From a virus, in IMG/VR virus record IMGVR_UViG_3300042402_003388, positions 36,551 through 100,550 of that record: 64,000 bases of DNA. One strand, given 5' to 3'. The notes under the pieces were generated by a model. That model made no database searches, was not told the DNA's origin, and was given only the letters and a program-made list of their open reading frames with translations. Below are positions 4,051 to 16,372 of this stretch, piece after piece (position 1 is the first letter of the stretch; each line of letters starts with the position of its first letter). The position numbers and the translations under genes are program-made.

Positions 4051-4052
4051 AG

Positions 4053-4138
4053 TACTCGGGGCGGGAATCGAACCCGCACGGACCTTACGGTCCATCAGAT
4101 TTTAAGTCTGACGTGTCTACCTATTCCACCACCCGAGC
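4053..4138 (-). tRNA. tRNA-Leu(TAA)
   Basis: GCTCGGG/CCCGAGT stem, TCAGA-CT-TAA-AA-TCTGA, long variable arm. Confidence 0.95.
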
Positions 4139-4140
4139 GT

Positions 4141-4165
4141 TTCAAAGAACTATGGTACAAATGTA
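4141..4165 (-). promoter_or_regulatory. Bacteroidota -7 element (TAcaTTTG) followed by boxA (GTTCTTTGAA)
   Basis: Minus strand reads TACATTTG-taccata-GTTCTTTGAA directly before tRNA-Leu(TAA). Confidence 0.7.
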
Positions 4166-4180
4166 CGAAAGAAATTTCAA

Positions 4181-4678
4181 TTAATCAAATCCCATCGAAC
4201 TTTTATATTCAATCCACACACGTTCAATTGAATTATTTAGAACATCTGAGAATAAGGATGGTTCATATGGTTTTGCCCTCATATTCAAACCCGCTTCTTG
4301 TGGTGTTCTGTCTGCTTTGTATAAATTACACTTATGACAACAAGTTACCAAGTTACTCCAAGTATTCTTACCACCCTTTGATTTTGGTATAACGTGGTCT
4401 AACGTTAATTGTTTTGTTGAACCACAATAAACACATTCTCCATTATCTCTTCTGTAAATTCTATTTCTGTTAACCCTAATATTCCTAACTCTGTATTTTA
4501 CATACTTCAATAGACGAATGATTAATGGACGAACAAAATTTTGATAACCTGCATAGATAGGGTTGTCGGAACTCTTTAAGATTTCCGCTTTACCTTTAAA
4601 CACTAACTTAAAACCTCTTTGAGGTGAAGTTACGTTTATTGGGGTATAATCCGAATTTAATACTAATACTCTATCCAT
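4181..4678 (-). CDS. HNH endonuclease (McrA/HNH_5-like)
   Basis: RDNGECVYCG...LTLDHVIPKSKGG...NLVTCCHKCNLYK. Confidence 0.93.
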   Translation of the reverse strand: MDRVLVLNSDYTPINVTSPQRGFKLVFKGKAEILKSSDNPIYAGYQNFVRPLIIRLLKYVKYRVRNIRVNRNRIYRRDNGECVYCGSTKQLTLDHVIPKSKGGKNTWSNLVTCCHKCNLYKADRTPQEAGLNMRAKPYEPSLFSDVLNNSIERVWIEYKSSMGFD

Positions 4679-4713
4679 AACTGTGCAAATTTAATACATT
4701 TTTTTTATAAAAC

Positions 4714-4743
4714 AAAAAAAGGTCACAATTTCTTGTGACCTTT
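4714..4743 (-). terminator. attenuator terminator of leader 3
   Basis: AAAGGTCACAA-GAAA-TTGTGACCTTT plus U-tract; left arm can alternatively pair with GTGACCTT in the leader ORF (4797-4804). Confidence 0.85.
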
Positions 4744-4771
4744 CTTTTATACGTTTTTAGTTTAACTAATC

Positions 4772-4876
4772 TTATTTTTGTTTATCTAAACCGCGTAAGG
4801 TCACTATACCATTGCCACATAACGATGTGATAATGTTATCCTGTATCAAAAGACCTGTGTTGTTATACGTTTTCAT
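4772..4876 (-). CDS. putative leader peptide 3 (34 aa, MKTYNNTGLLIQDNIITSLCGNGIVTLRGLDKQK)
   Basis: Short ORF absent from the ORF track, TATTTAT motif upstream, overlaps antiterminator segment; Leu codons CTT, TTG, TTA x3. Confidence 0.65.
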   Translation of the reverse strand: MKTYNNTGLLIQDNIITSLCGNGIVTLRGLDKQK

Positions 4877-4908
4877 AAATTACGGTTTTCTTTCTTATAA
4901 ATATGTTC

Positions 4909-5733
4909 CTATTCTGAAACCGCCCTACCTTTTAAAGATTTCCAATCTTGTTCAGGACGAACTTCTAAATTAGTTTTCCAAGCCGACTCTAATACGTTCA
5001 TATTACAACCTACTTCTTTAGCCATAGTAATTAACGCATTTATATCCTTTGGGAAACAAGTTCCACCAAAACCTAATTTACCATCAGGACCTGGAACGTG
5101 TAAATGGGAATCCCCAATTCTACCATCGGAAGCAAACCCGTAAAGAGCGTCTTCCCAATTAACACCAATTAATTGACTTAATCTATAATATTCATTCATC
5201 AGACTAACTTTTGCCGCGAAGAATGTGTTATTCATATATTTCACAAACTCAGCAGTTTTGGAATCAGTGTGAATGATGTGTCTATTCATAAATCGGTCGT
5301 TGAATAATTCCTCAACTTGTTTAGTTAACGATGGTTCACCTCCTAAAATAATTCTTGCCTGTGTTAACATATCTAACTTGGCAGTTCTCTCAGTTAAAAA
5401 CTCAGGTGAAAATATAATGTTATGACCGTATTTTTTAATTAAAGAGTCGGTAGTACCTGGTAATACGGTTGATTTGATAATGAAAATAGTATTTTCATTG
5501 TAAATAATGTTACCGAAAAAGTCTTCAATAAATGAAATATCTTGAGACCCATCACTGAACATTGGGGTTGGTAAACATACAAAAATAAATTCTTGTTCCA
5601 TTACTTCTTCTAATGTGTGAGTAGCCTTTAACGGATTAATGTCGTAAACTTTAACATCTGATGTTGGGCTAAATGCGAATGCAATAGTTTCCCCAACAAA
5701 ACCATTACCTATTACTCCTACTGTTTTTTTCAT
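4909..5733 (-). CDS. UDP-glucose/GDP-mannose dehydrogenase family (lacks C-terminal domain)
   Basis: GNGFVG Rossmann motif, IKSTVLPGT, SPEFLTE, KYMNN, GFGGTCFPKD. Confidence 0.93.
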   Translation of the reverse strand: MKKTVGVIGNGFVGETIAFAFSPTSDVKVYDINPLKATHTLEEVMEQEFIFVCLPTPMFSDGSQDISFIEDFFGNIIYNENTIFIIKSTVLPGTTDSLIKKYGHNIIFSPEFLTERTAKLDMLTQARIILGGEPSLTKQVEELFNDRFMNRHIIHTDSKTAEFVKYMNNTFFAAKVSLMNEYYRLSQLIGVNWEDALYGFASDGRIGDSHLHVPGPDGKLGFGGTCFPKDINALITMAKEVGCNMNVLESAWKTNLEVRPEQDWKSLKGRAVSE

Positions 5734-5786
5734 ATTATTTATTTAAAAATTATTATACATATAATTATAATAAGAAAAATAATTAA

Positions 5787-6272
5787 ATGAATAGTGAAGT
5801 AAATTACGAATCTTTTGGGGGGTGGGCCATCTCAAGAAAACTGTTTGAATGGATTTTAAACCATTTACCGAAAGGAAGTACAATACTTGAACTAGGTAGT
5901 GGTAATGGTACTAAAGAGTTAGTTAAATTCTACAATGTGTATAGTGTGGAACATAACATTGAATGGGTTAATTTGGTTCCCGAATCTACGTATATTTACG
6001 CCCCTTTAATTAATGGATGGTATGATGTTGAAATTTTAAAACAAGAATTACCGACTCACTATGATTTACTACTTATCGACGGTCCAATAGGTAAAAATAG
6101 GGTTAATATTATTAATCATTACAAAATGTTTAAAACTGATATACCTATAATTATTGATGATACTAATCGTGAAGATGATAATAACCTTTCAATATTTTTA
6201 AGAAAAACCCTAAATAAAAAAGCATCACTATCTGTGACCTGTGAAGATAAAATATTTACAATTATTTACTAA
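5787..6272 (+). CDS. class I SAM-dependent methyltransferase-like
   Basis: ILELGSGNG, LLLIDGP, IIIDD. Confidence 0.75.
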   Translation: MNSEVNYESFGGWAISRKLFEWILNHLPKGSTILELGSGNGTKELVKFYNVYSVEHNIEWVNLVPESTYIYAPLINGWYDVEILKQELPTHYDLLLIDGPIGKNRVNIINHYKMFKTDIPIIIDDTNREDDNNLSIFLRKTLNKKASLSVTCEDKIFTIIY

Positions 6273-6976
6273 TGGAGGAAAATGAAAAATACGACTTTTG
6301 TATTGTTATTACGACATATGAAAGAGAGGATATGTTAAAACAGTTACTGAAAGATATTTTTGAATACACTGAATATAAAATGTATGTGGTCGTTTTTGAT
6401 GATGGAAGTAAACACCCTTATGACTTAAGTGAGTATGACGTAAAATATGTTAAATATGTAAAAAATAATGGGTTAAAGAATCTTTGGAGAGTGATAAGCG
6501 ACACTTTTAAATTTTGTAAAAATATAGACGCTAAGTATTATTTCTATTTTCAGGATGATTTGCGTCTGAAAAAAAACTTTTTCCAAGAAAGTATTAGAAT
6601 TTTTGAAAATATCCCTGACGAGAATAAAATTAGTTTAGGGACATTAATGATTGACACCCAAAGAAACATACCTAAATGGACGGGAGTTTATCCAATTGAG
6701 TATGACGAATATTATAAAACACAATGGTGTGAGTTAGTTTTTATGTGTGAATACAAGTTTTTCGAATCTTTAGAATTTAAACTTAACCCAATACCTATGT
6801 CAAGATGGGATAAAAATCCTAATAATAGTAGCGGTGTTGGTCAACAAATTAGTGTTAGATTATTTGAAAAAGGTTTAAATATGTATCACGTAATTAATAC
6901 ATTAACCACTCACGGTGACCACGAGTCTGTAATATTACCCGAACTTAGAAAAAATGAAAAATTAATTGCAATATAA
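6272..6976 (+). CDS. GT2-family glycosyltransferase
   Basis: IVITTYER, VFDDGS, YFQDD. Confidence 0.85.
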   Translation: MEENEKYDFCIVITTYEREDMLKQLLKDIFEYTEYKMYVVVFDDGSKHPYDLSEYDVKYVKYVKNNGLKNLWRVISDTFKFCKNIDAKYYFYFQDDLRLKKNFFQESIRIFENIPDENKISLGTLMIDTQRNIPKWTGVYPIEYDEYYKTQWCELVFMCEYKFFESLEFKLNPIPMSRWDKNPNNSSGVGQQISVRLFEKGLNMYHVINTLTTHGDHESVILPELRKNEKLIAI

Positions 6977-6990
6977 AATTTAAAAATAAT

Positions 6991-8757
6991 ATGGATAAAA
7001 TAATATATAATGTTGCAAGCTATAAAAGAGGAGATACTTTAATAAAAACTATACAATCAATTTATAATCAATGTGATATTATCAACGTTGCACTTAATGA
7101 TTATGATGAAATACCTGTTGAATTGTACGATAAAAAAATAAATTTATTTATTACGGATAATGACAGAGGGGATGCGTATAAATTTTATAAATTAATGAAT
7201 TCTGAGGGTTATTATTTCACAATTGATGATGATTTAATATACCCCGAAAATTATACCGAATATATGGTTGATAAAGTTAATCAATATGGTAAAAAATCGA
7301 TAATTACACAACACTCAAGAAGTTTTAATTCATTTCCTATTAATAATTTTTATGGTCGTAATACCTTAGTTAATCATTTTAAACAACTACAAACTAACGA
7401 TATTAAAGTTCAATTTGGAGGTACTGGTGTTATGTGTTTTCACACTGATTTATTTAAAGTACCTATTGAATATTTTGATAGACCAAATATGGCTGATGTG
7501 TGGATTGGTAAATACGCAAAAGAAAATGATATTGATATTATATGCGTCAAACATAATAGCGGGTTTGTAGTACAACAAAATTTTGAGGACTCAATATATA
7601 CCTCCGATTCCAAAAATGATACAATTCAGACAATTTTGACTAACGACTGTTATATGGATAAGGAAGTGTCGATAATCATACCTACATTTGATAATGTTGA
7701 ATATATTCAAGAATGTTTAGATTCCGTAGTATCCTCGTGTTCTATGATTAATAACTTTGAAATATTGGTAGGTATCGACTATTGTCCAAAAACTTTAAAA
7801 TTTATAATGGAAAATAGTTTTGACTATCGAATAAGATTTTATTTTTTTAATGACAATGTCGGTCCGTATATCATTAAAAATTCATTATCAAGAATTTCTA
7901 AATCGGATAATATAATTTTTTTTGATTCTGATGATGTTATGGATAAAGATATGGTTAGTGAGGTTTTGTTAGGACTTAAAACTTCAGAATGTGTTAAACC
8001 AATGTTTCATAATTTTACTAATTATATTGATTATGACGACCCAAAATATAACTTAGAAACTAAGTTATTTGGTGAAGGGGTATTCGGAATTAAAAAAAAT
8101 ATTTTTTTAAATTTTAACGGGTTTGAAGGGTGGAGATGTGCCGCGGATTCTGACTTTATGGTTAGAATTCAAAAAAATGGAGTAACATTTAATTGGGCTA
8201 AAAAATTATTGTTTTACCGAAGAATACACGATAAAGGTTTAACAACGATTCCTGAAACTAATTATGGGTCTAAATTACGTAAACATTATATTGAGTTAAC
8301 AAATTCAAAAACAAATTTTGGGCCACTGGATGAAATGAAGATTTCGGATTTTACAAGAATTTATACTAAAACAGAAATAACTAAAATTAGTTATCGTAAT
8401 ATTATACCGACCAAACCTGTAATTGAGACTCCACAACATAGTACTGAGGATACTTTAAAACAAGTTTATTCTAAAAGTACGGTTATCGATAATAAAGTTA
8501 AACCAATTAATACTGAGGATAAAATTCTATCTAAATCAATTGAAAAGTCGGATAATAGTACAGTAGAAGATATTCGTAAAAATGTTTTATCATTATTGTC
8601 TGATAAAAAAGTTGTTAAAAAAATTGATAAGGATTTGATTGACCAAAAAAGACAAAATAGTAGAGATGTTGTAATACCGTATACAATTCAACCTGTTAAA
8701 AAGACCAGTAGAACGAGTGGGATTAACACAAAAAGAGGGGGAGGATTTAATTTTTAA
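6991..8757 (+). CDS. two-domain GT-A glycosyltransferase
   Basis: TIDDDLIYP in first domain; SIIIPTFD and FFDSDD in second. Confidence 0.85.
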   Translation: MDKIIYNVASYKRGDTLIKTIQSIYNQCDIINVALNDYDEIPVELYDKKINLFITDNDRGDAYKFYKLMNSEGYYFTIDDDLIYPENYTEYMVDKVNQYGKKSIITQHSRSFNSFPINNFYGRNTLVNHFKQLQTNDIKVQFGGTGVMCFHTDLFKVPIEYFDRPNMADVWIGKYAKENDIDIICVKHNSGFVVQQNFEDSIYTSDSKNDTIQTILTNDCYMDKEVSIIIPTFDNVEYIQECLDSVVSSCSMINNFEILVGIDYCPKTLKFIMENSFDYRIRFYFFNDNVGPYIIKNSLSRISKSDNIIFFDSDDVMDKDMVSEVLLGLKTSECVKPMFHNFTNYIDYDDPKYNLETKLFGEGVFGIKKNIFLNFNGFEGWRCAADSDFMVRIQKNGVTFNWAKKLLFYRRIHDKGLTTIPETNYGSKLRKHYIELTNSKTNFGPLDEMKISDFTRIYTKTEITKISYRNIIPTKPVIETPQHSTEDTLKQVYSKSTVIDNKVKPINTEDKILSKSIEKSDNSTVEDIRKNVLSLLSDKKVVKKIDKDLIDQKRQNSRDVVIPYTIQPVKKTSRTSGINTKRGGGFNF

Positions 8758-8765
8758 AAATAAAA

Positions 8766-8796
8766 TTTGACTTTTTACGTTACATACGTATATTTA
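8766..8796 (+). promoter_or_regulatory. near-consensus Bacteroidota promoter for leader 1
   Basis: TTTG(8766)-N19-TATATTTA(8789). Confidence 0.55.
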
Positions 8797-8819
8797 ATTA
8801 AAAACAAGTAAAACTGCAA

Positions 8820-8894
8820 ATGAAAACAACACATATCATACTAATAGGCGGGACAGATAGAACTGAAGCGACTACTCCAATGGAGATGGTGTGA
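8820..8894 (+). CDS. putative leader peptide 1 (24 aa, MKTTHIILIGGTDRTEATTPMEMV)
   Basis: Short ORF between promoter and terminator; codons match tRNA array 9015-11322. Confidence 0.8.
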   Translation: MKTTHIILIGGTDRTEATTPMEMV

Positions 8895-8918
8895 TATTCC
8901 TATACTATGAATTCACTG

Positions 8919-8947
8919 AACCCATCTCCAAAAGAGATGGGTTTTTT
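8919..8947 (+). terminator. attenuator terminator of leader 1
   Basis: AACCCATCTC-CAAAA-GAGATGGGTT-TTTT; CCATCTCCA (8922-8930) alternatively pairs with TGGAGATGG (8881-8889). Confidence 0.88.
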
Positions 8948-8967
8948 GTTTTTAGATTGTTAAACAT

Positions 8968-8998
8968 TTTGTTCTTTGAAATATTGGTTGTATCTTTG
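8968..8998 (+). promoter_or_regulatory. boxA (GTTCTTTGAA 8971-8980) overlapping a Bacteroidota promoter (TTTG-N19-TATCTTTG)
   Basis: Direct motif match; same boxA precedes five RNA-gene units. Confidence 0.7.
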
Positions 8999-9014
8999 TA
9001 AAAGATTTAAAAAT

Positions 9015-9086
9015 GGTCCCTTCGTCTATCGGTTAGGACATATCCCTTTCACGGATAAAAGACGGGTTCGATTCCCGTAGGGACTA
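9015..9086 (+). tRNA. tRNA-Glu(TTC)
   Basis: TATCC-CT-TTC-AC-GGATA, cloverleaf. Confidence 0.95.
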
Positions 9087-9107
9087 CAAAACTTAAAAAA
9101 TATTATT

Positions 9108-9371
9108 ATGCCAGAATTTAACACTTATGTTGATGTAGACGTTTACGAATTTATTGATGAATGTTCAAAAAGTGAAATTAATGAGTTAATTGACGATTTA
9201 ATTGATAGGGGTTACTTAAACAAAAATAGTAAAGGGGTTGGTAAACCACCGAAATATTCATTAATTGAGGAAACTCATAGAGATTATTGTGATGTTTTGG
9301 CGAATTCTTACCATAGAATGAGTAAGGAAGACGAAGAAACAATCGCGAATATTGCTAAAAAATATTCGTAA
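9108..9371 (+). CDS. hypothetical protein
   Basis: 87-aa ORF with phage-like codon use between tRNAs. Confidence 0.7.
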   Translation: MPEFNTYVDVDVYEFIDECSKSEINELIDDLIDRGYLNKNSKGVGKPPKYSLIEETHRDYCDVLANSYHRMSKEDEETIANIAKKYS

Positions 9372-9378
9372 TAAAAAT

Positions 9379-9452
9379 GGGGGTGTATGTCTCAAGGCCG
9401 ACGAGAATGATTTGCAATCAATCTGGGGTGAGTTCGATTCTCACCATCTCCA
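9379..9452 (+). tRNA. tRNA-Ala(TGC), atypical D arm
   Basis: GGGGGTG/CATCTCC with G3:U70 Ala identity pair, loop TT-TGC-AA, GTTCGATTC. Confidence 0.85.
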
Positions 9453-9456
9453 CAAT

Positions 9457-9547
9457 GTTATCATAGCTCAGTAGGATGAGGCCGCAATCGGATTCCTTTA
9501 AACAACGCGTGAGGGGCGGCTTTCACGATGTGGCTGAAGTGATAACA
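9457..9547 (+). ncRNA. tRNA-like RNA lacking a T arm
   Basis: GTTATCA/TGATAAC+A acceptor-like stem, TAGCTCAGTAGG D-like arm, internal helices, no TTCR loop. Confidence 0.5.
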
Positions 9548-9557
9548 AATAATATAT

Positions 9558-9629
9558 CGCGGGATAGAGCAGTGGTAGCTCGCAAGGCTCATAACCTTGA
9601 GGTCGGGGGTTCGAATCCCTCTCCCGCAA
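9558..9629 (+). tRNA. tRNA-fMet(CAT)
   Basis: C1:A72 mismatch, CAAGG-CT-CAT-AA-CCTTG. Confidence 0.92.
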
Positions 9630-9638
9630 CTAATATAT

Positions 9639-9712
9639 CGTGGGTTAGACTGGAGGTGGTTCCAGCTTGGTCTCATAAGCCAAAGACGGGGGTTCGAGTC
9701 CCTCACCCGCAA
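9639..9712 (+). tRNA. second, divergent initiator-type tRNA-Met(CAT)
   Basis: C1:A72 mismatch, TTGGT-CT-CAT-AA-GCCAA, extended D stem CTGGA/TCCAG. Confidence 0.8.
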
Positions 9713-9790
9713 CAAAGTGTCTCGGTCCGCTCTGACGAAAGTTAACGACGAGGTCTCGGTAGACAGAACGCGTCTGATTCTACCCAAAAT

Positions 9791-9863
9791 GCGAGAGTAG
9801 CTCAGTTGGTAGAGCACAACCTTGCCAAGGTTGGGGTCGCGGGTTCGAATCCCGTCTCTCGCT
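9791..9863 (+). tRNA. tRNA-Gly(GCC)
   Basis: Canonical cloverleaf, TT-GCC-AA. Confidence 0.97.
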
Positions 9864-9872
9864 CAATAATAA

Positions 9873-9945
9873 GCGGATATCGTATAATGGCTTATTACTT
9901 CAGCCTTCCAAGCTGAAGATGTGAGTTCGATTCTCACTATCCGCT
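9873..9945 (+). tRNA. tRNA-Gly(TCC)
   Basis: TCAGC-CT-TCC-AA-GCTGA. Confidence 0.96.
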
Positions 9946-9950
9946 CAAAA

Positions 9951-10023
9951 GGTCCCGTGGTTGAATGGTTACAATTCCACCCTGTCACGGTGCGAGGTAC
10001 GGGTTCGAATCCCGTCGGGACCG
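9951..10023 (+). tRNA. tRNA-Asp(GTC)
   Basis: CT-GTC-AC loop, G73. Confidence 0.92.
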
Positions 10024-10031
10024 CAAACTTT

Positions 10032-10103
10032 GGTCTATTCGTTCATCGGCTAGGATGCTACCCTGTCACGGTAGTGAGGAGGGTTCGATTCCCTCATAGA
10101 CCG
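10032..10103 (+). tRNA. tRNA-Asp(GTC), second variant
   Basis: CTACC-CT-GTC-AC-GGTAG, G73. Confidence 0.94.
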
Positions 10104-10133
10104 CAAAAATAAATTAATTTATACTTATTGAGT

Positions 10134-10292
10134 ATGGATAAAGAAAAATGGGATTCTGATGAATGGCAAGGGCGTTCTAAAGACAGGGTCGAAAAAAACA
10201 ATAAAGTTTTTGGATACTCTATATTACTTACAATACTTGGTACAGTAATTTGTTATTTATACGTCATAATATCCACTTATTTTAGATTTTGA
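10134..10292 (+). CDS. small membrane protein (52 aa)
   Basis: MDKEKWDSDEWQG... with C-terminal hydrophobic stretch; below ORF-track cutoff. Confidence 0.6.
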   Translation: MDKEKWDSDEWQGRSKDRVEKNNKVFGYSILLTILGTVICYLYVIISTYFRF

Positions 10293-10342
10293 TTTGTTAT
10301 TTCGTAAAAAATTTACTAAATTTGTAGTGTAAATAAAATATT

Positions 10343-10519
10343 ATGTGGGTAATTGTAAAATTAATGGAAAGTCTTAATGGTGTTAAAGTTCCTGTCATTA
10401 TCTTAGATGGACACTCAGAAATTTGGGAATTTGAAACTGAAGAAGAGGCGGTTAAAATGAGAGACATTTTTTCTAAAAACTCGGACTCAGGTCACGTTTA
10501 CTTAGTTAAAAAAGTCTAA
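10343..10519 (+). CDS. small hypothetical protein (58 aa)
   Basis: MWVIVKLMESLNG...; TAAATTTG promoter element at 10317-10324. Confidence 0.65.
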   Translation: MWVIVKLMESLNGVKVPVIILDGHSEIWEFETEEEAVKMRDIFSKNSDSGHVYLVKKV

Positions 10520-10524
10520 CAAAT

Positions 10525-10598
10525 GGTTCCGTAGCTCAGCTGGATAGAGCAACTGCCTTCTAAGCAGTAGGTCACAGGTTCGAATCCTGTCGGGACTA
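10525..10598 (+). tRNA. tRNA-Arg(TCT)
   Basis: ACTGC-CT-TCT-AA-GCAGT. Confidence 0.97.
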
Positions 10599-10613
10599 CT
10601 AAATTAAAAAATT

Positions 10614-10868
10614 ATGGTTGATATTAATCAAGATATTGTATTTGAGGAAGAACATAATGAGTTTATTAAAAGTGAGTTATTCTGTCAAATGATGAAAGAA
10701 AAAATAGAACATTCTGCGTATCATAAATTTGATGGTATTGCACCTGAAGGATTTACGTTGGTACCAAATGAGGTGTTAGAAGAACTTAAGGACTTTGACA
10801 ATTGGAAGGAGTTTAAATACGATTTAGAATGGATTAAGAAAAATTCTATAAAGTATTTGGTAGTTTAA
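10614..10868 (+). CDS. hypothetical protein
   Basis: 84-aa ORF. Confidence 0.65.
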   Translation: MVDINQDIVFEEEHNEFIKSELFCQMMKEKIEHSAYHKFDGIAPEGFTLVPNEVLEELKDFDNWKEFKYDLEWIKKNSIKYLVV

Positions 10869-10885
10869 CTTATAAAAAATAATAT

Positions 10886-11164
10886 ATGAAAAAATTTGCA
10901 CCATACGTATTAGTACTTATTTGGTTTTTAGTTATTGGGTTATTGGCGTTCTTATTGACAGGATGTAAAAATAAGAATAAAATAGAACCTGGTGATAAAG
11001 TAGTTAAATGTGTAATTGATAGTGTTTCAACTGAAGGACCTCGTTCAACTATTGAACCGTATGTAAGATATTATTACTATACCAAATGTGGTGAAAGACT
11101 TATTACCAATCGAGATGACATTTACAAAATTGGGGACACGATAACTTACGTATATAAAAAATAA
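10886..11164 (+). CDS. putative lipoprotein
   Basis: MKK + hydrophobic stretch + LTGC lipobox. Confidence 0.7.
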   Translation: MKKFAPYVLVLIWFLVIGLLAFLLTGCKNKNKIEPGDKVVKCVIDSVSTEGPRSTIEPYVRYYYYTKCGERLITNRDDIYKIGDTITYVYKK

Positions 11165-11169
11165 AATAA

Positions 11170-11242
11170 GCCTCCTTAGCTCAGCTGGTAGAGCACTTCA
11201 CTTGTAATGAAGGGGTCGTAGGTTCGAATCCTACAGGAGGCT
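11170..11242 (+). tRNA. tRNA-Thr(TGT)
   Basis: CTTCA-CT-TGT-AA-TGAAG. Confidence 0.97.
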
Positions 11243-11248
11243 CAAATT

Positions 11249-11322
11249 GGTCCTTTAGCTCAGTTGGTTAGAGCAGCTCACTCATAATGAGAAGGTCACA
11301 GGTTCAAGTCCTGTATGGACCA
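11249..11322 (+). tRNA. tRNA-Ile2(CAT, lysidine type; reads ATA)
   Basis: GGTCCTT acceptor with C4:G69/C5:G68, CT-CAT-AA, GTTCAAGTC T loop as in bacterial Ile2. Confidence 0.85.
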
Positions 11323-11343
11323 CAAATATCTAAAAACACAAAT

Positions 11344-11511
11344 ATGCAACTTATATTCAATATTATCGCAACAATTGTATTCCTAATCTTTGGGATTATA
11401 TGGAGTAAGAAAACGTTCACAGACATTATAGCCAAAATAATTTGTCTTGGTTTATCCATTTTAGGAATTATTCTAATTTTGATACAATGCGGGTATATTA
11501 TTAAAAAATAG
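11344..11511 (+). CDS. small two-TM membrane protein
   Basis: Start at MQLIFN; upstream part of track ORF overlaps a tRNA. Confidence 0.65.
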   Translation: MQLIFNIIATIVFLIFGIIWSKKTFTDIIAKIICLGLSILGIILILIQCGYIIKK

Positions 11512-11526
11512 TCATATATTTGTACT

Positions 11527-11802
11527 ATGAAAAGTTACCTGATTATTAGAGAGGATTATTTTAATGAAAAAGGAATTGGTAACAATACTCATTTCTGTAT
11601 TAAAGAATCTAAAAAATTTTTATGGTTTGAATGGTGGTCGTACGTGAAATACAAAGAATGTTACGAAAGTGGTTCATATAACACTGTTTTAAAGTTCACT
11701 AATTTATATGAAGCAGAAAAATTTGTTAATGAAGTTTTGTTAAAAAACGGACCAAGACAAAAATGGTCATCTATGACCCTAAAAGAAATAAAAGAAAAAT
11801 GA
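11527..11802 (+). CDS. hypothetical protein
   Basis: 91-aa ORF after TATATTTG element. Confidence 0.65.
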   Translation: MKSYLIIREDYFNEKGIGNNTHFCIKESKKFLWFEWWSYVKYKECYESGSYNTVLKFTNLYEAEKFVNEVLLKNGPRQKWSSMTLKEIKEK

Positions 11803-12386
11803 AAACGATATTTTTAGACCACGATGGAGTAATCTGTTTATCCACAGAGTGGGGTGGTCGTTACAAGAAACAAAAAAAATGGGGAGAACTTAAAATGTCT
11901 ATGGGGATGAATGAAATCCCTATTGAATTTAGATTTGACAATTTTAATAAGAAGGCAATCAAAATTCTGAATTCAATTATTGAAGAAACTGGTGCTGAGA
12001 TAGTAGTTTCATCTGATTGGAAACGATGGGCAACTGTTGAGGAAATGGGACAATACTACGAATCTCAAGGGATTATCAAAAAACCAATCTCATTTACTCC
12101 AAACTTAAGTGAATGTAATAACTATGATGGTTCATTTCCTTGGAATAGAGATTGGGATTTAGAACAAACTCGTACATTAGAAATTAACCAATATTTGAAG
12201 GACCATCCTGAGGTGACAGAATGGGTTGCAATCGATGACCTTAATATGGGAAAAGAGGGGATGTCATATTCAATTAAATGGGTTCACGATTGGGGTTTAG
12301 ATAATTTTGTACTAACACCAAAAGGTAATGAAGGGTTAAAACAATCAGGAATTAAAGAAAAAGTTTTATCTTTTTTAATAAAATAA
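11799..12386 (+). CDS. HAD-family phosphatase (RNA-repair 'Swiss Army Knife' HAD_SAK_2-like)
   Basis: IFLDHDGVI, IVVSSDWK, WVAIDD. Confidence 0.8.
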   Translation: MKTIFLDHDGVICLSTEWGGRYKKQKKWGELKMSMGMNEIPIEFRFDNFNKKAIKILNSIIEETGAEIVVSSDWKRWATVEEMGQYYESQGIIKKPISFTPNLSECNNYDGSFPWNRDWDLEQTRTLEINQYLKDHPEVTEWVAIDDLNMGKEGMSYSIKWVHDWGLDNFVLTPKGNEGLKQSGIKEKVLSFLIK

Positions 12387-12393
12387 AAAAATA

Positions 12394-12424
12394 TTTGACA
12401 ATTACGGAATTTTTCGTAACTTTG
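12394..12424 (+). promoter_or_regulatory. consensus Bacteroidota promoter for leader 2
   Basis: TTTG(12394)-N19-TAACTTTG(12417). Confidence 0.8.
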
Positions 12425-12469
12425 TAGTAATTATAGAAACAGGTAGAAATACCACAACAAATAGAAAAA

Positions 12470-12580
12470 ATGAAAAACACTAATAAACATATGAACGTCG
12501 TGATTTGGAAACAACAATTTAGTAATTGTTCGTATCCGCGTATTTCGCATACAAGTTCAGTTGATGAAGGTTTAGTGTAA
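12470..12580 (+). CDS. putative leader peptide 2 (36 aa, MKNTNKHMNVVIWKQQFSNCSYPRISHTSSVDEGLV)
   Basis: Short ORF between promoter and terminator; codons 6-24 sample all 15 tRNA types of array 12687-15825. Confidence 0.85.
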   Translation: MKNTNKHMNVVIWKQQFSNCSYPRISHTSSVDEGLV

Positions 12581-12614
12581 TGTAAATAAAATAACATACA
12601 ACAAATATCTCAAG

Positions 12615-12646
12615 TCCTGAACTCAAAAAGTTCAGGATTTTTTTTT
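12615..12646 (+). terminator. attenuator terminator of leader 2
   Basis: TCCTGAACT-CAAAA-AGTTCAGGA-T9; CTGAACT alternatively pairs with AGTTCAG (12554-12560). Confidence 0.9.
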
Positions 12647-12656
12647 GTTATAAAGT

Positions 12657-12666
12657 GTTCTTTGAC
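12657..12666 (+). promoter_or_regulatory. boxA antitermination element
   Basis: GTTCTTTGAC followed by ATATTGG, same context as 8971. Confidence 0.7.
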
Positions 12667-12686
12667 ATATTGGTAAGAAAAGTAAA

Positions 12687-12758
12687 CGGGGTGTAGTCTC
12701 GAGGAGAGACGCGTGTTTTGGGAACACGAGGCGGCAGGTTCGACTCCTGTCACCCCGA
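12687..12758 (+). tRNA. tRNA-Pro(TGG)
   Basis: CGTGT-TT-TGG-GA-ACACG, short atypical D loop. Confidence 0.9.
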
Positions 12759-12764
12759 CTATAT

Positions 12765-12838
12765 TGTCACATAGCTCAGTTGGTTAGAGCGTTCGCCTGA
12801 TACGCGAAAGGTCGATGGTTCGAGTCCATCTGTGACAA
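12765..12838 (+). tRNA. tRNA-Ile(GAT)
   Basis: TTCGC-CT-GAT-AC-GCGAA. Confidence 0.95.
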
Positions 12839-12844
12839 CTTAAT

Positions 12845-12919
12845 GTCTTCGTAGCTCAGTTGGTTTAGAGCACCTCACTTTTAATGAGGGAGTCACAGGT
12901 TCGAGTCCTGTCGGGGACA
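12845..12919 (+). tRNA. tRNA-Lys(TTT)
   Basis: CCTCA-CT-TTT-AA-TGAGG. Confidence 0.95.
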
Positions 12920-12925
12920 CAATAT

Positions 12926-12997
12926 GGTCGGTTGGCCGAGTGGCTTAGGCGATAGTCTGCAAAACTATCTACACAGGTTCGATTCCTGTACCGACCT
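12926..12997 (+). tRNA. tRNA-Cys(GCA)
   Basis: ATAGT-CT-GCA-AA-ACTAT, U73. Confidence 0.96.
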
Positions 12998-13002
12998 CAA
13001 AT

Positions 13003-13075
13003 ACGTCTGTAGCTCAGTTGGTAGAGCACTGGTCTCCAAAACCAGGTGTCGGTGGTTCGAATCCATCCAGGCGTG
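13003..13075 (+). tRNA. tRNA-Trp(CCA)
   Basis: CTGGT-CT-CCA-AA-ACCAG. Confidence 0.96.
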
Positions 13076-13079
13076 CAAT

Positions 13080-13153
13080 GACTCAGTAGCTCAGGGGTTT
13101 AGAGCAGTTGACTGTTAATCAACGGGTCGTAGGTTCGATTCCTACCTGGGTCG
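13080..13153 (+). tRNA. tRNA-Asn(GTT)
   Basis: GTTGA-CT-GTT-AA-TCAAC. Confidence 0.96.
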
Positions 13154-13156
13154 CAA

Positions 13157-13291
13157 TAGGTTGATTAGGGAATGATTGTACTGATAGTTCGAGAGTGAAT
13201 ACTGACTAGTACAATCGGAGTTTGCAGGTATTCACCCGAGTAATGCTAATCGTAAAAACAGATGTCCACTGAACCATCTTCTGTTTTCCTA
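13157..13291 (+). ncRNA. unassigned structured RNA with kissing-loop/pseudoknot
   Basis: GATTGTACT/AGTACAATC hairpin whose loop GTGAATAC is complementary to GTATTCAC; closing helices GATTAG/CTAATC and TAGG/CCTA. Confidence 0.6.
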
Positions 13292-13295
13292 AATT

Positions 13296-13376
13296 GGGAG
13301 TGTTGAGCAACGGTTGCTTAGCTGACTGTAAATCAGTGGTCTTACGACATTGGGGGTTCGAATCCCTCCACTCCCA
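13296..13376 (+). tRNA. tRNA-Tyr(GTA)
   Basis: GCTGA-CT-GTA-AA-TCAGT, long variable arm. Confidence 0.93.
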
Positions 13377-13382
13377 CAAAAT

Positions 13383-13411
13383 AAAAAAGGGGATATAAAT
13401 CCCCTCTTTTT
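13383..13411. terminator. bidirectional hairpin terminator
   Basis: AAAAAAGGGGAT-ATAA-ATCCCCTCTTTTT. Confidence 0.7.
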
Positions 13412-13429
13412 CGATTAGGTCGTTATCAA

Positions 13430-13594
13430 TTATTTCTGTTTAGCAATAATTGACCATACACCACCAACTAATGTAACTGCAGCTCCGATAAGTTCTTGAA
13501 CTGTTGAATCAGTTGCAAGACCTTTCATAATCAGGATACCACCCACAAAAGTAAGTGCGTGTCTAACGATACCTTGGATTTGTTCTTTAGTCAT
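13430..13594 (-). CDS. small two-TM holin-like protein (54 aa)
   Basis: MTKEQIQGIVRHALTFVGG...GGVWS; TATTTAT motif upstream; antisense insertion within tRNA array. Confidence 0.7.
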   Translation of the reverse strand: MTKEQIQGIVRHALTFVGGILIMKGLATDSTVQELIGAAVTLVGGVWSIIAKQK

Positions 13595-13650
13595 TATAAA
13601 TTTGATTAAAGGTTTATGCCAGACTATAAATATTGGAAAAACGGTCAAAC

Positions 13651-13721
13651 TGTCCTTTCGTCTAATGGCAGGACACGTGGTTTTGGTCCACGCGGTGGAG
13701 GTTCGAATCCTCCAGGGACAA
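13651..13721 (+). tRNA. tRNA-Gln(TTG)
   Basis: CGTGG-TT-TTG-GT-CCACG, U1:A72. Confidence 0.94.
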
Positions 13722-13775
13722 CAAGGGGTTAGGTGGAAACCCAAGAGTAGGTGATGAGTCTACGTCCACCAAAAT

Positions 13776-13847
13776 ACCGATGTAGCTCAGTGGTAGAGCA
13801 CTTCTTTCATACGGAAGGTGTCGGAAGTTCAATTCTTCCCATCGGTA
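13776..13847 (+). tRNA. tRNA-Met(CAT), elongator type
   Basis: ACCGATG/CATCGGT, CTTCT-TT-CAT-AC-GGAAG. Confidence 0.85.
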
Positions 13848-13853
13848 CTTAAC

Positions 13854-13928
13854 AGTTCCTTAGCTCAGTTGGTTTAGAGCACTTCTTTTACACGGAAGGG
13901 GTCGTAGGTTCGAATCCTACAGGGACTA
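13854..13928 (+). tRNA. tRNA-Val(TAC)
   Basis: CTTCT-TT-TAC-AC-GGAAG. Confidence 0.94.
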
Positions 13929-13935
13929 CAAAATG

Positions 13936-13972
13936 CCAAACTCGGTAGTAAAACACGTCCAAACTCGGTAGT
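13936..13972 (+). repeat. 14-bp direct repeat x2 (CCAAACTCGGTAGT)
   Basis: 13936-13949 and 13959-13972. Confidence 0.9.
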
Positions 13973-13983
13973 TTTAAAAAAAG

Positions 13984-14093
13984 TTTGGTGAATTGAAAAA
14001 TGTTTCATACCTTTGTATTCACAAACAACGGGGGGTAGGAGTTAGTAAGTCGGTGGCCTACCCCCCCTGAGACAAGATAGAAAGTTCTTTGAA
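13984..14093 (+). promoter_or_regulatory. promoter + GC-rich hairpin + boxA (rrn-leader-like)
   Basis: TTTG-N20-TACCTTTG; GGGGGGTAGG/CCTACCCCCC (14030-14066); GTTCTTTGAA (14084). Confidence 0.7.
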
Positions 14094-14103
14094 TTAAAAT
14101 ACT

Positions 14104-14237
14104 GATAATGGTTTTCCCCACTCAACGGATGTCGACAATCCAGAATGGAATCGGAATTCAGCACCCCCTGCCGAGGCCTCGTAAAACTACGATTAAGCAG
14201 TTAAGATTGGAGCGAGATGGGTACTCCAACATTATCA
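14104..14237 (+). ncRNA. unassigned RNA closed by acceptor-like stem
   Basis: GATAATG/CATTATC+A with adjacent TTGGAG/CTCCAA hairpin in T-arm position. Confidence 0.5.
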
Positions 14238-14242
14238 TACTT

Positions 14243-14315
14243 GGAACGGTAGCTCAGTTGGTAGAGCACTTGCCTGAAGAGCAAGGTGTCGGCGGTTCGA
14301 TTCCGCCCCGTTCCA
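14243..14315 (+). tRNA. tRNA-Phe(GAA)
   Basis: CTTGC-CT-GAA-GA-GCAAG. Confidence 0.96.
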
Positions 14316-14389
14316 CGGAGTCCTGAAATAACAGGAAACCCCCACTCCCATATGGCAGCCAGTCCATTAACCTGGTGAAGTGGGGTAAT

Positions 14390-14523
14390 AGTCGAGTGGG
14401 CGTAATGAGGGATGGTACCCGAGTCCCCAAGACCAATAGTCCCAGACACTTGTGGGTTCTATGGAGTCGTAAGGTTGTCTAATCCGTCTTGAACGGTATT
14501 CGGTTCGAGTCCGACCTTGACTA
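14390..14523 (+). ncRNA. oversized tRNA-like RNA A (134 nt)
   Basis: AGTCGAG/CTTGACT+A acceptor, TCGG-TTCGAGT-CCGA T arm, expanded centre. Confidence 0.65.
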
Positions 14524-14529
14524 CAAAAT

Positions 14530-14631
14530 AGTCAGGAGTCCATTGGTTGGAGTCACCTCCCCAAGGTTGAGTAACAGTAAGGCTGACTCTTTATGGCAAA
14601 GACGGAACAGGTTCGAATCCTGTCCTGACTA
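14530..14631 (+). ncRNA. oversized tRNA-like RNA B (102 nt)
   Basis: AGTCAGG/CCTGACT+A acceptor, ACAGG-TTCGAAT-CCTGT T arm, enlarged anticodon-position loop. Confidence 0.7.
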
Positions 14632-14847
14632 CACGAGTCGAGTAGTATACGACTAGTTTGCTCCCGAATGATGAGAAGTGGTGTTACAACCATAGGGACC
14701 TGAGCCGATTACTTGAGTCTAAGTCGGTTGGTTAGTGTACCAGTAACAGGAGTAAGTTAACACACAAGTTCTAACCCCTCACGAAATTGGTGAGTTGCCG
14801 CTGAAATTCGGTATTGGGGACAGTCAAAAATGATTGAACGACTATAT

Positions 14848-14921
14848 GGTGGTTATAGCTCAGTTGGTAGAGCACTTGATTGTGGTTCAAGGTGTCACGG
14901 GTTCGATTCCCGTTAATCACC
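14848..14921 (+). tRNA. tRNA-His(GTG)
   Basis: G-1:C73, CTTGA-TT-GTG-GT-TCAAG. Confidence 0.96.
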
Positions 14922-14927
14922 CAAAAA

Positions 14928-15015
14928 GGAGGAATGGCAGAGTGGTCGATTGCACTAGTCTTGAAAACTAGCGTACCGAAAGGTACCGTAGGTTCGAATC
15001 CTACTTCCTCCGCCA
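14928..15015 (+). tRNA. tRNA-Ser(TGA)
   Basis: CTAGT-CT-TGA-AA-ACTAG, long variable arm, encoded CCA. Confidence 0.97.
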
Positions 15016-15017
15016 AA

Positions 15018-15424
15018 GACCCCACGATTAACGGAAGTATCCGACCGTTACGGAGTGTGAACCTGACTTGAAGGCTTCAAGGCTATGGGGGAGGCAACAC
15101 AAACAAACAAGGATTCCCCATTATGGATTAAGGGGGTAAGGGGCTTTAATTAGTCGTAATACAATCCACAAGTTGTAAGAATACTGAACAATCTTACAAT
15201 ACACACTCAGCTTCCGAGTGAGACTCGCCACGTAACTTTGGGGGTAGGGTGAAGATGTTCTGAGGGTAACCCTGAAATATGGGTGAGAGTAGAAACCCAC
15301 CGTGGACGGTTACTATGGGCTAACGAATCTTAGTCATATCGGTGAGGGATACTAATGACGCCAGACTATATTAAAAACTAAAAGGTTCTCCTCAAAGGCG
15401 GAGGGACGATTCAGGACCTTTTTT
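15018..15424 (+). ncRNA. unassigned structured non-coding region ending in a terminator-like hairpin
   Basis: No ORF, GC-richer, hairpins TTGTAAGA/TCTTACAA, CACTC/GAGTG, CTTGAAG/CTTCAAG; AAAAGGTTCT...AGGACCTTTTTT at end. Confidence 0.45.
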
Positions 15425-15452
15425 AATCCTACACTTAAAAAATCTAAAATAT

Positions 15453-15656
15453 ATGACAGACAAATTACAAGAGTTGTTAGAAACATCTCAAATCGGTGAG
15501 CCCGAAATTGTTGACTTATTAAACTCAATGTACAAATTGGTTGAAACTAAATTATTTACACAGGATGAGTTCAATGTTGTGTTAGATAGGTTAGGAATCA
15601 AACAAGAAGGGAATTCCTTCATTTTTAATGAAGATATGGTTTATACCTTCAATTAA
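15453..15656 (+). CDS. hypothetical protein
   Basis: 67-aa ORF. Confidence 0.65.
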   Translation: MTDKLQELLETSQIGEPEIVDLLNSMYKLVETKLFTQDEFNVVLDRLGIKQEGNSFIFNEDMVYTFN

Positions 15657-15662
15657 AAGTAT

Positions 15663-15734
15663 AGTCCCTTGGTGTAACGGATAGCACGAAACACTACGGA
15701 TGTTTTAGTGGGGGTTCGAATCCCTCAGGGACTA
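15663..15734 (+). tRNA. tRNA-Arg(ACG)
   Basis: AAACA-CT-ACG-GA-TGTTT. Confidence 0.93.
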
Positions 15735-15739
15735 CTATT

Positions 15740-15825
15740 GGAAGATTACCCAAGTTGGTGAAGGGGCTTGTTTGCTAAACAAGTAGGACTGTAAGGTCGC
15801 GAGGGTTCGAGCCCCTCATCTTCCG
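15740..15825 (+). tRNA. tRNA-Ser(GCT)
   Basis: CTTGT-TT-GCT-AA-ACAAG, long variable arm. Confidence 0.95.
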
Positions 15826-15829
15826 CACA

Positions 15830-16372
15830 TTATCTTAATTGATTATATACCGATAACGACTTATTAATGAATACCTTTCTGTCTGATTTTTGATAACAGT
15901 CGGATGCGAAATATCCATCAGCGTCATACCTATCAATATGGAATCTTGTATCACCAATAGTTTCAATAGACACTATAAAGTTATGACTATCGATATACCC
16001 AACCCTAATAATGTTACCAATCAATCTATTAGAGTTATCTTTATTTGATTGACCAAAACTTATAAAATCAGCGTCAATATCTTTAATATTATCCCATAGT
16101 TCAGGATGTAGTAATGTGTCGTCATCATTTGAGTATACATAACCATCCTTAATCATATCAATAGCGTAATTTCGTTGTGCGTGGCCTGCGGTACTTCTCG
16201 GATTTCTATGTAAATACGTCTCACAATTATCAGGAATTAACTTTTTGTCGGGTAGTTCGTCAAAATCAAAAACAACTATCCATCGATAATTTTCTTTTGG
16301 GATGTTTATACTTTCAGAGATTAAATGTAAATTCTCAGGTCTACTACAAGGTGTTATGATATTTAATTTCAT
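15830..16372 (-). CDS. GT-A glycosyltransferase
   Basis: IITPCSR, QRNYA, SNDDD. Confidence 0.8.
   Translation of the reverse strand: MKLNIITPCSRPENLHLISESINIPKENYRWIVVFDFDELPDKKLIPDNCETYLHRNPRSTAGHAQRNYAIDMIKDGYVYSNDDDTLLHPELWDNIKDIDADFISFGQSNKDNSNRLIGNIIRVGYIDSHNFIVSIETIGDTRFHIDRYDADGYFASDCYQKSDRKVFINKSLSVYNQLR

Follow-up and report, generated by a model that had tools for sequence, protein, structure and literature searches.

What determines when a phage transcribes its own transfer RNA (tRNA) genes, which are usually taken as constitutive cargo related to codon usage or anti-defence? The question is raised by a stretch of 64,000 nucleotides (nt), hereafter the window, comprising bases 36551-100550 of the 100,550-bp IMG/VR virus record IMGVR_UViG_3300042402_003388, which encodes the large terminase, portal, major head protein, ClpP, a Lon-like protease, a transfer-messenger RNA (tmRNA) and 28 tRNAs grouped in three blocks. 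One further tRNA gene lies upstream of the window, and the record has a guanine-plus-cytosine (GC) content of 32.7% and a CheckV completeness of ~33%. Arrays 1 and 2, the two blocks considered first, are each headed by a short leader open reading frame (ORF) and an intrinsic terminator, and it is probable that these two leaders are ribosome-dependent transcription attenuators metering own-promoter transcription into the tRNA arrays. The reading of leaders 1 and 2 as codon-matched attenuators appears strongly supported by sequence comparison, because the codon/tRNA association is frame-specific, leaders are partitioned among arrays within single contigs, the antiterminator covaries and the geometry is conserved.

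The closest cultured phage by terminase was Flavobacterium phage immuto (27% identity). Promoters were called with the Bacteroidota -33/-7 pattern in place of the E. coli sigma-70 pattern, and sites resembling the former (TTG-N18-20-TAnnTTTG) were four-fold enriched, with 20 observed versus 5.4 in shuffles. A scan for E. coli-type sigma-70 promoters (64 found versus 51 expected) was dropped as uninformative for this clade. As the Bacteroidota promoter type is enriched and the motif GTTCTTTGAMATATTGG matches Bacteroidota 16S-23S spacers, the host is likely a member of the Bacteroidota, probably a flavobacterial one. The elements of the first two units, with positions counted along the window, are as follows.

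8766..8796, plus strand: Bacteroidota -33/-7 promoter for leader 1, TTTG-N19-TATATTTA, deviating from the consensus at its last base
8820..8894, plus strand: leader ORF 1, 24 codons, MKTTHIILIGGTDRTEATTPMEMV, ATG AAA start, with homologues in 14 other loci
8880..8892, plus strand: antiterminator segment 1, TGGAGATGGTGTG, overlapping the final four codons and base 1 of the stop codon
8918..8949, plus strand: intrinsic terminator 1 including its T-run (hairpin 8918-8944), 11-bp stem, CAAAA loop
8971..8988, plus strand: boxA-like motif GTTCTTTGAAATATTGGT, also found in Bacteroidota 16S-23S spacers
8969..8998, plus strand: internal promoter P2, TTG-N19-TATCTTTG, perfect consensus, between terminator 1 and tRNA-Glu
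9015..11323, plus strand: tRNA array 1, with Glu, Ala, two initiator-type Met, Gly-GCC, Gly-TCC, two Asp, Arg-TCT, Thr and a tRNA with anticodon CAT
12394..12424, plus strand: promoter of leader 2, TTTG-N19-TAACTTTG, perfect consensus
12470..12580, plus strand: leader ORF 2, 36 codons, MKNTNKHMNVVIWKQQFSNCSYPRISHTSSVDEGLV, ATG AAA start
12553..12565, plus strand: antiterminator segment 2, AAGTTCAGTTGAT, pairing with the left arm of terminator 2
12612..12648, plus strand: intrinsic terminator 2 including its T-run (hairpin 12612-12640), 12-bp stem, CAAAA loop, 9 T
12657..12674, plus strand: boxA-like motif GTTCTTTGACATATTGGT, downstream of terminator 2
12687..13377, plus strand: first unit of array 2, with Pro, Ile-GAT, Lys, Cys, Trp, Asn and Tyr
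13651..15826, plus strand: distal part of array 2, with Gln, Met(CAT), Val, Phe, His, Ser-TGA, Arg-ACG and Ser-GCT, and GC-rich unannotated gaps

In both units 25-45 nt separate the promoter from the ATG, the leader is the only gene before the terminator, and a TTGAC..N..TAnnTTTR layout like that of the leader 1 promoter also precedes homologous leaders on other contigs. The boxA-like motif stands within 20-27 nt after each of the two terminators. No match to the Bacteroidota promoter pattern was found from terminator 2 to tRNA-Pro, and on this pattern the Pro-Ile-Lys-Cys-Trp-Asn-Tyr block is the sole one reachable only through its leader.

A preliminary description of this DNA, made from its letters, had proposed that the codons of each leader mirror the tRNAs encoded behind it. 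With the codon usage of the phage itself as background (taken from the 79 ORFs that reach 150 codons), this held for two of the three leaders. Leader 1 contained 15/23 codons cognate to its own array (background 0.36, P = 0.004), or 17/23 (P = 4e-4) if ATA is counted as read by the CAT tRNA at 11249, compared with 7/23 and 1/23 for the other two arrays. Leader 2 contained 29/35 (background 0.57, P = 0.001), and all 14 non-Met tRNA classes of array 2 were represented in it (P = 3.5e-4); in its sensing zone, at least 12 nt upstream of the antiterminator segment, 21/22 codons were cognate (~7e-5, binomial with the phage background). The match also extended to isoacceptors, with the described Arg split borne out in full (AGA in leader 1 and Arg-TCT in array 1; CGT in leader 2 and Arg-ACG in array 2), as was the absence of W, C, F, Y, Q, N and S from leader 1. 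The corresponding Ile split was correct in part: leader 2 uses ATT twice, and leader 1 has ATC, ATA and ATA rather than ATA alone. The CAT tRNA at 11249, earlier named Ile2, has the acceptor-stem pairs C4-G69/C5-G68, which, by E. coli TilS rules, suggests that it is indeed Ile2; if so, the CAT tRNA at 13776 would then be the elongator Met. The tRNAs at 9558 and 9639 carry the initiator C1xA72 mismatch. These two initiator-type genes are adjacent (9558-9713), the second scoring low (38 bits) and perhaps being degenerate, and small ORFs lie between the tRNAs of array 1.

An IMG/VR scan keyed on the boxA-like motif alone yielded 111 loci, many of them alike in having a TTGAC..TAnnTTTR promoter, a 20-48-codon ATG AAA leader, a hairpin with a T-run, the motif and then tRNAs. 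These loci also carried a leader segment matching the right arm of the terminator, an AT-rich spacer and a hairpin often with a CAAAA loop. A generic detector recovered 59 distinct leader peptides, 40 of which passed filters (in 32 loci), with 34 of these 40 starting ATG AAA. Two broad peptide families were recognized besides others, namely MKNLHI.LLGG..., preceding Leu/Met/Gly/Ala/Glu/Asp/Thr sets, and MKT..KHM..QQ..CW..., preceding Phe/Ile/Gln/Arg-ACG/Trp/Tyr/Lys/Cys/His/Ser sets. The clearest single case was locus L079 with three leader/array pairs, in which MKTMNTNTNLDTPTTPNGDAGT... precedes Pro-Asn-Asp-Gly-Thr-Ala, MRTTLLNTLLLDRQGLLRRLMP precedes Leu-Arg(TCT)-Leu, and MKTTIKHMVFSTQQKSICWYERMH... 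precedes Glu-Val-Phe-Lys-Cys-Trp-Tyr-Met-Gln-Arg(ACG)-His-Ser-Ile-Ser. At leaders 1 and 2 the feature goes far beyond chance, and on the sequence evidence it belongs to a widespread family in uncultured phages.

Cross-phage statistics were computed on 25 leaders, no two of which reach 60% identity. Codons cognate to the leader's own array numbered 487/775, versus 354 ± 17.5 when arrays were permuted (z = 7.6, 0/100,000 permutations, p < 1e-5). With matched fractions over the 25 pairs z was 7.4, so that the comparative check proposed in the preliminary description came out in its favour, and permutation only among arrays of similar size gave z = 4.8. The association was confined to the ORF frame (z = 7.3, versus -2.4 to 1.2 in the five other frames), in which 94% of the array tRNA classes were represented in the leader, compared with 60-75% in the other frames. 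Cognate codons occurred in 14/14 leaders with the tRNA in the array and in 4/11 without it for Phe, and equally for Gln (14/14 and 4/11); the corresponding counts were 13/13 and 3/12 for Pro, 12/13 and 2/12 for Arg CGN, and 5/6 and 4/19 for Arg AGR, and the frequency of UUR codons was 0.119 with the tRNA in the array versus 0.013 without. Moreover, when leaders and arrays of the same contig were compared, the better fit was to the leader's own array in 21/22 comparisons, with one tie. Since this own-array preference holds within one contig, phage-specific codon usage is excluded as an explanation.

The same data bear on whether the leaders are instead a general gauge of translation speed, reporting overall capacity (ribosome shortage, host shut-off, antibiotics or cold), with their codons a by-product of descent. 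Any slowing of the leader ribosome would flip the switch alike, most amino acids have just one or two codons, and the N-terminal part (MK..H) is conserved regardless of array content. In this part, the pentamer CAYAT, encoding His and then Met or Ile at codons ~5-8, was observed in 17/25 non-redundant leaders, irrespective of the presence of tRNA-His in the array (rough chance estimate ~9%); in the window it occurs at 8830-8834 and 12488-12492, within the first 33 nt of the leader ORFs, and it may represent a pause site, a pairing partner or shared descent. Yet a gauge of this kind leaves unexplained the own-array match within a phage (21/22), at the isoacceptor level and in the ORF frame only. 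It also fits poorly with family A, to which leader 1 belongs, where leader 1 has lost every UUR Leu codon of its relatives and array 1 is the one without Leu-TAA, the codons having gone exactly where this tRNA left the array. We therefore regard a general gauge as unlikely. In codons 2-11 of family A, variability at codon positions 1, 2 and 3 was 0.16, 0.09 and 0.29, respectively; this excess at the third position, like the frame-specific signal, is indirect evidence that the leaders are translated.

The second line of evidence concerns the RNA switch. As the preliminary description had reported, three leader ORFs starting MK, three terminators and three in-ORF complements to the left terminator arms are present. 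In predicted folds of all three leaders, RNA cut before the right arm forms the antiterminator and full-length RNA forms the terminator. Paired with the left arm, segment 1 reaches -14.9 kcal/mol (P = 0.009; the reference here and for the other two segments below is random 72-nt windows drawn from this DNA), and across loci the leaders' own antiterminator duplexes averaged -14.1 kcal/mol, versus -8.6 ± 2.8 for leader/terminator pairs drawn across loci. Segments and stems change together, as in GGAGATGG/CCATCTCC, GGAGAAGG/CCTTCTCC and AGTTCGGG/CCCGAACT, and likewise in TCTCGAGG/CCTCGAGA and ATTGAATCGG/CCGATTCAAT, among others. In the alignment of family A (15 sequences) the antiterminator helix was paired in 87% of cells, compared with 47-63% with the partners slid, and its covariation score was exceeded in 0/500 shuffles, in agreement with the compensatory pairing changes that had been anticipated. 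One left-arm column (A/C/U) covaries with both of its partners, in the antiterminator and in the right arm.

The geometry of the 25 leaders is consistent with a ribosome as the device that sets the fold. The hairpin follows the stop codon by 21-67 nt (median 26), and the antiterminator segment begins a median of 20 nt before the stop codon, from which a terminating ribosome would be expected to cover the segment and not the terminator. Furthermore, cognate codons made up 66.5% of the positions at which a stalled ribosome would leave the segment free, versus 55.6% elsewhere (P = 0.0036).

Taken together, the following course of events is proposed. RNA polymerase would start at the Bacteroidota -33/-7 promoter, and a ribosome would load on the A-rich 5' end of the transcript at ATG AAA. 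When decoding is fast, the ribosome would reach the stop codon and mask the in-ORF segment, the terminator would form ~25 nt downstream and transcription would end. When decoding is slow upstream of the segment, the segment would stay free and pair with the left arm, so that the terminator is blocked, and the read-through polymerase would transcribe the boxA-like element, probably recruiting rrn-type antitermination factors, and then the tRNAs. The sensed codons are those of the tRNAs behind the terminator, which would give negative feedback in which a shortage raises transcription of the array and thereby relieves the stall; a circuit of this kind, whose output removes the shortage that it senses, would be homeostatic. 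The anatomy, the alternative pairing with its covariation and the frame-specific match of codons to tRNAs across many phages are shown in silico, whereas translation of the leader, read-through upon stalling, the part played by boxA and the natural trigger are inferred.

The motif behind the terminators is itself informative. Its core, GTTCTTTGAMA, is present five times in the 100-kb record, and in every case a stable-RNA gene follows closely: the three arrays, the solo tRNA-Phe and the tmRNA. The 18-nt motif is present in 16S-23S spacers of Chitinophaga, Niabella, Mucilaginibacter and others in the same form as behind terminators 1 and 2, so that by its location it resembles the rrn-type boxA, the NusB/NusE site of rRNA leaders and spacers. 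Unlike the rrn-type element, the phage motif lies downstream of an attenuator and would act only on polymerases that read through. A search of 185,579 species genomes for a T-run followed by boxA returned 37 matches, in rRNA spacers or by chance in coding sequence, and no leader with a tRNA array; this pattern is narrow and thus gives weak evidence of absence from host genomes. The two further sites in the record were also inspected. The tmRNA gene (24650-25035, minus strand; Rfam RF00023, 99.6 bits), missed by ARAGORN, is preceded by a consensus promoter (25085-25055) and the boxA-like core GTTCTTTGAAAATATGGGG. The solo tRNA-Phe upstream of the window (record 12200-12620; locus L001 1300-1700) has a terminator, a consensus promoter and a boxA-like motif without a leader ORF, and a second consensus promoter directly 3' of it heads an unannotated stretch.

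Several observations weigh against attenuation as described, or limit its reach. The leaders share descent, and hence the 25 pairs are not fully independent. The antiterminator 2 duplex is weak when taken alone (-9.7 kcal/mol, P = 0.12). A 1:2 protector hairpin was predicted for leader 1 only and lacked comparative support in the 25 leaders (own -11.5 versus cross -10.9 kcal/mol, P = 0.17); in the absence of a conserved 1:2 hairpin, read-through might be the default state of a leader that is not translated. A typical amino acid is represented by only one or two codons per leader, a situation in which classical attenuators are poorly sensitive. For this reason a response to the loss of a single tRNA (an 'OR gate') can only be inferred, and the circuit could equally well sum decoding speed over the whole codon set, in the manner of a timer. 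P2 would bypass attenuator 1 and is conserved in the close relative L048. In addition, array 2 contains promoters and a terminator of its own, so that much tRNA transcription may bypass the leaders.

13383..13410, both strands: bidirectional terminator inside array 2 that serves the holin-like gene and is strong in that gene's direction (minus strand)
13430-13594, minus strand: small holin-like gene interrupting array 2 after tRNA-Tyr (Phage_holin_10, E = 8e-18)
13574-13604 and 13985-14015, plus strand: two internal consensus promoters, flanking tRNA-Gln, Met and Val

Because of the consensus promoter after terminator 1 and the internal promoters in array 2, the leaders cannot be the sole control; by this promoter evidence they add a regulated component atop basal expression, and control is partial. 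A homologue of the holin-family gene lies directly upstream of a leader in locus L114. The GC-rich gaps of array 2 (13930-14243, 14317-14848 and 15016-15662; 45-52% versus 33% for the genome) contain no ORFs and no Rfam matches. Extra T-arm motifs at 14502 (GGTTCGAGTCC) and 14610 (GGTTCGAATCC) were not called as tRNAs, even allowing introns, and RNA-library contigs cover 14447-14851; the gaps may hold degenerate or unusual tRNA-like RNAs.

The third leader is the weakest point. The preliminary description had given all three arrays one architecture, which is retained for arrays 1 and 2; in front of array 3, an HNH gene and two promoters intervene.

4772..4876, minus strand: leader ORF 3, 34 codons, MKTYNNTGLLIQDNIITSLCGNGIVTLRGLDKQK, ATG AAA start
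4794..4804, minus strand: antiterminator segment 3, GTGACCTTACG, duplex -13.1 kcal/mol, P = 0.008
4714..4747, minus strand: intrinsic terminator 3, 15-bp stem
4715-4686, minus strand: consensus promoter after terminator 3, Bacteroidota pattern
4181-4678, minus strand: gene for an HNH endonuclease, headed by a consensus promoter and separating terminator 3 from the two tRNA-Leu genes
4188-4158, minus strand: second consensus promoter, preceding the boxA-like motif of the Leu tRNAs
4150-4139, minus strand: boxA-like motif GTTCTTTGAAAC, directly before tRNA-Leu(TAA)
4138-4052, minus strand: tRNA-Leu(TAA), array 3
3841-3761, minus strand: tRNA-Leu(TAG), array 3

Leader 3 is thus cut off from the Leu tRNAs, and the concentration of Leu codons claimed for it was not significant (5/33 versus a background of 0.08, P = 0.12). 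As the leader has no significant codon match and an HNH gene with its own promoter now stands behind it, leader 3 is probably a rewired or decaying copy with the same predicted RNA switch, that is, a structural copy of doubtful function; the HNH gene may be a mobile insertion that uncoupled the leader from its array. The resemblance of leader 3 to leaders of L114 and L096 led us to consider a relic of a larger Leu/Asn/Gly/Tyr/Gln array, which was rejected (18/33 versus ~0.41 expected, not significant). The proposal of codon-matched attenuators is accordingly kept for leaders 1 and 2 and not carried over to leader 3, which is not significantly matched and is uncoupled from its tRNAs.

Leader 3 and the bypassing promoters also give some ground for supposing no regulation at all, with the terminators insulating upstream units, downstream promoters driving the arrays (consensus promoters follow terminators 1 and 3 and lie inside array 2), and the ORFs and pairings inherited without function. 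This supposition is difficult to reconcile with the organization of the units, in which a dedicated promoter stands before each leader and nothing but the leader is encoded up to the terminator, and terminator 2 is followed by no promoter before tRNA-Pro. Moreover, the frame-specific match, the covarying antiterminator and the conserved stop-to-hairpin spacing in divergent phages indicate selection, and an absence of regulation is hence considered quite improbable.

Three metatranscriptome runs matched 5-7% of sampled words and were available as assembled contigs only. A 194-nt RNA-library contig corresponds to 12466-12659, covering leader 2 and its terminator, in a run without coverage over the neighbouring protein genes; other contigs run across terminator 3 into the HNH gene, with coverage missing from parts of the region. 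Such contigs cannot show starts, ends, strand or regulation, DNA carry-over is possible, and they were given no weight. The 194-nt contig would suit a terminated leader RNA or peptide acting in trans, like rnTrpL/peTrpL in Sinorhizobium, with the link to tRNAs secondary, and there is precedent for an attenuator RNA acting in trans (PMC7298713). As the peptides diverge freely beyond the constraint on codon content and no target is apparent, action in trans seems highly improbable.

Comparison with known systems places attenuation at leaders 1 and 2 close to the classical designs. The E. coli ilvGMEDA and thr leaders are multivalent leader-peptide attenuators of amino-acid operons; like them, the phage leaders have their own promoter, a short ORF, codons for more than one amino acid, and competition between antiterminator and terminator with a (here predicted) ribosome-set fold. 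Unlike them, the phage leaders precede tRNAs and not enzymes, and the tRNA product would act directly on the step being sensed. The phage leaders also sample as many as 14 amino acids, mostly once or twice each, where the classical leaders have runs of one to three; a boxA-like element comes behind the terminator, and no 1:2 hairpin is conserved. The pheM leader of E. coli pheST, which controls an aminoacyl-tRNA synthetase by attenuation, similarly concerns a component of the translation apparatus with decoding of cognate codons as input, whereas it reads a single amino acid (a Phe run) and has a protein-coding target in a bacterial context. To our knowledge, all described leader-peptide attenuators control enzymes of amino-acid biosynthesis or aminoacylation, and the phage targets are tRNAs. 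T-box riboswitches likewise report tRNA status to translation-related genes by a terminator/antiterminator switch, but they bind uncharged tRNA directly and need no ORF, whereas the phage signal is frame-specific; a T-box was rejected, as neither it nor any other Rfam cis-regulator matched in 3500-16500, where a search at E <= 1 returned tRNAs and chance matches only and no cis-regulatory family on the leaders. The trn operon of Anabaena PCC 7120 is an inducible tRNA array with promoter repeats bound by the RHH repressor TrcR (PMC8421152; PMC10272220). It resembles the phage arrays as an accessory tRNA set kept low and induced on impaired translation, and differs in being controlled at the promoter, the 2021 paper making no mention of an attenuator, leader or terminator.

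The preliminary description knew of no attenuation of phage tRNA operons, and full-text literature searching, extended to cellular tRNA genes, likewise found no description of leader-peptide attenuation of tRNA genes. What would be new, on the sequence evidence, is leader-peptide attenuation aimed at tRNA genes with an inventory-like leader; the build is classical, with the multivalent ilv and thr leaders as nearest relatives. When the array region and the two leader regions were compared with 50,697 phage records by blastn, the matches were to tRNAs only or there were none, and in immuto, which has four tRNAs, no such leader or terminator was found in the two stretches read, directly upstream of tRNA1 and tRNA2.

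A covariance model of family A was run on 151 Bacteroidia genomes, and 26 genomes had matches. Among the ten best loci (40-51 bits), which were inspected, four precede ilvE, one ilvA and one a peroxiredoxin gene, four were unclassified, and none lies directly upstream of a tRNA array. Ile/Phe/Val-rich leaders with terminator and antiterminator are found upstream of ilvE and ilvA (L157, L158, L161, L163 and L164), sharing the MK... start and the ...GMV stop layout with the phage leaders. In L159, a Cys-rich leader (MKKIDKNMCMCCCSK...) stands before the peroxiredoxin gene, with a tRNA-Cys ~730 nt downstream. These loci, judged by their sequence, show leader-peptide attenuation in use in the presumed host class, for which hardly any description of such attenuators was found in the Bacteroidota literature. 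As attenuators of the same build, rich in Ile, precede ilvE/ilvA in Bacteroidia, the mechanism is plausible in the host, and the similarity hints that host ilv leaders are the evolutionary source of the phage leaders.

The relationship to ilvE/ilvA leaders, which sense charging, also speaks for an amino-acid starvation sensor, in which the stall reports uncharged tRNA and couples phage tRNA synthesis to nutrient state; a ribosome cannot distinguish an absent from an uncharged tRNA. Extra tRNA cannot relieve starvation, however, so that codons tailored to the array would have no obvious benefit, and one leader covers up to 14 amino acids. A starvation sensor is consequently rated improbable.

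As for the trigger, a gene adjoining the leader 2 promoter upstream (11763-12386, plus strand) encodes a HAD_SAK_2 domain (E = 3e-21), the HAD domain of 'Swiss Army Knife' RNA-repair proteins, and an RNA-repair function of this gene beside the tRNA arrays is possible. Neither RtcB nor RNA-ligase families turned up in the 100-kb fragment, an uninformative result since it represents only ~33% of the genome. With the HAD_SAK_2 gene beside leader 2 and the phage tmRNA as circumstantial context, a link to host tRNA-destroying defences is a matter of speculation. In its extended form, the leaders would be counter-defence tripwires, each responding when any host tRNA of its set is lost to anticodon nucleases, to another defence that depletes tRNAs or to host shut-off, and inducing replacements together with the HAD gene and tmRNA. 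Phages of several phyla would then share a codon-addressed homeostasis of tRNA supply for which no cellular counterpart has been described; we hold this form to be possible but rather doubtful.

If attenuation by leaders 1 and 2 is true, a leader listing the codons served by its array would be a direct, self-correcting sensor of decoding capacity, with a control logic familiar for amino-acid genes since the trp operon here applied to tRNA genes. It would explain the grouping of phage tRNAs into particular blocks and would permit sequence-level prediction of transcription units and tRNA identities (e.g., Ile2 versus Met among CAT tRNAs), and the leaders would constitute a compact multi-input part for synthetic biology. 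Moreover, the question of when a phage needs its own tRNAs would be open to direct testing with reporter fusions.

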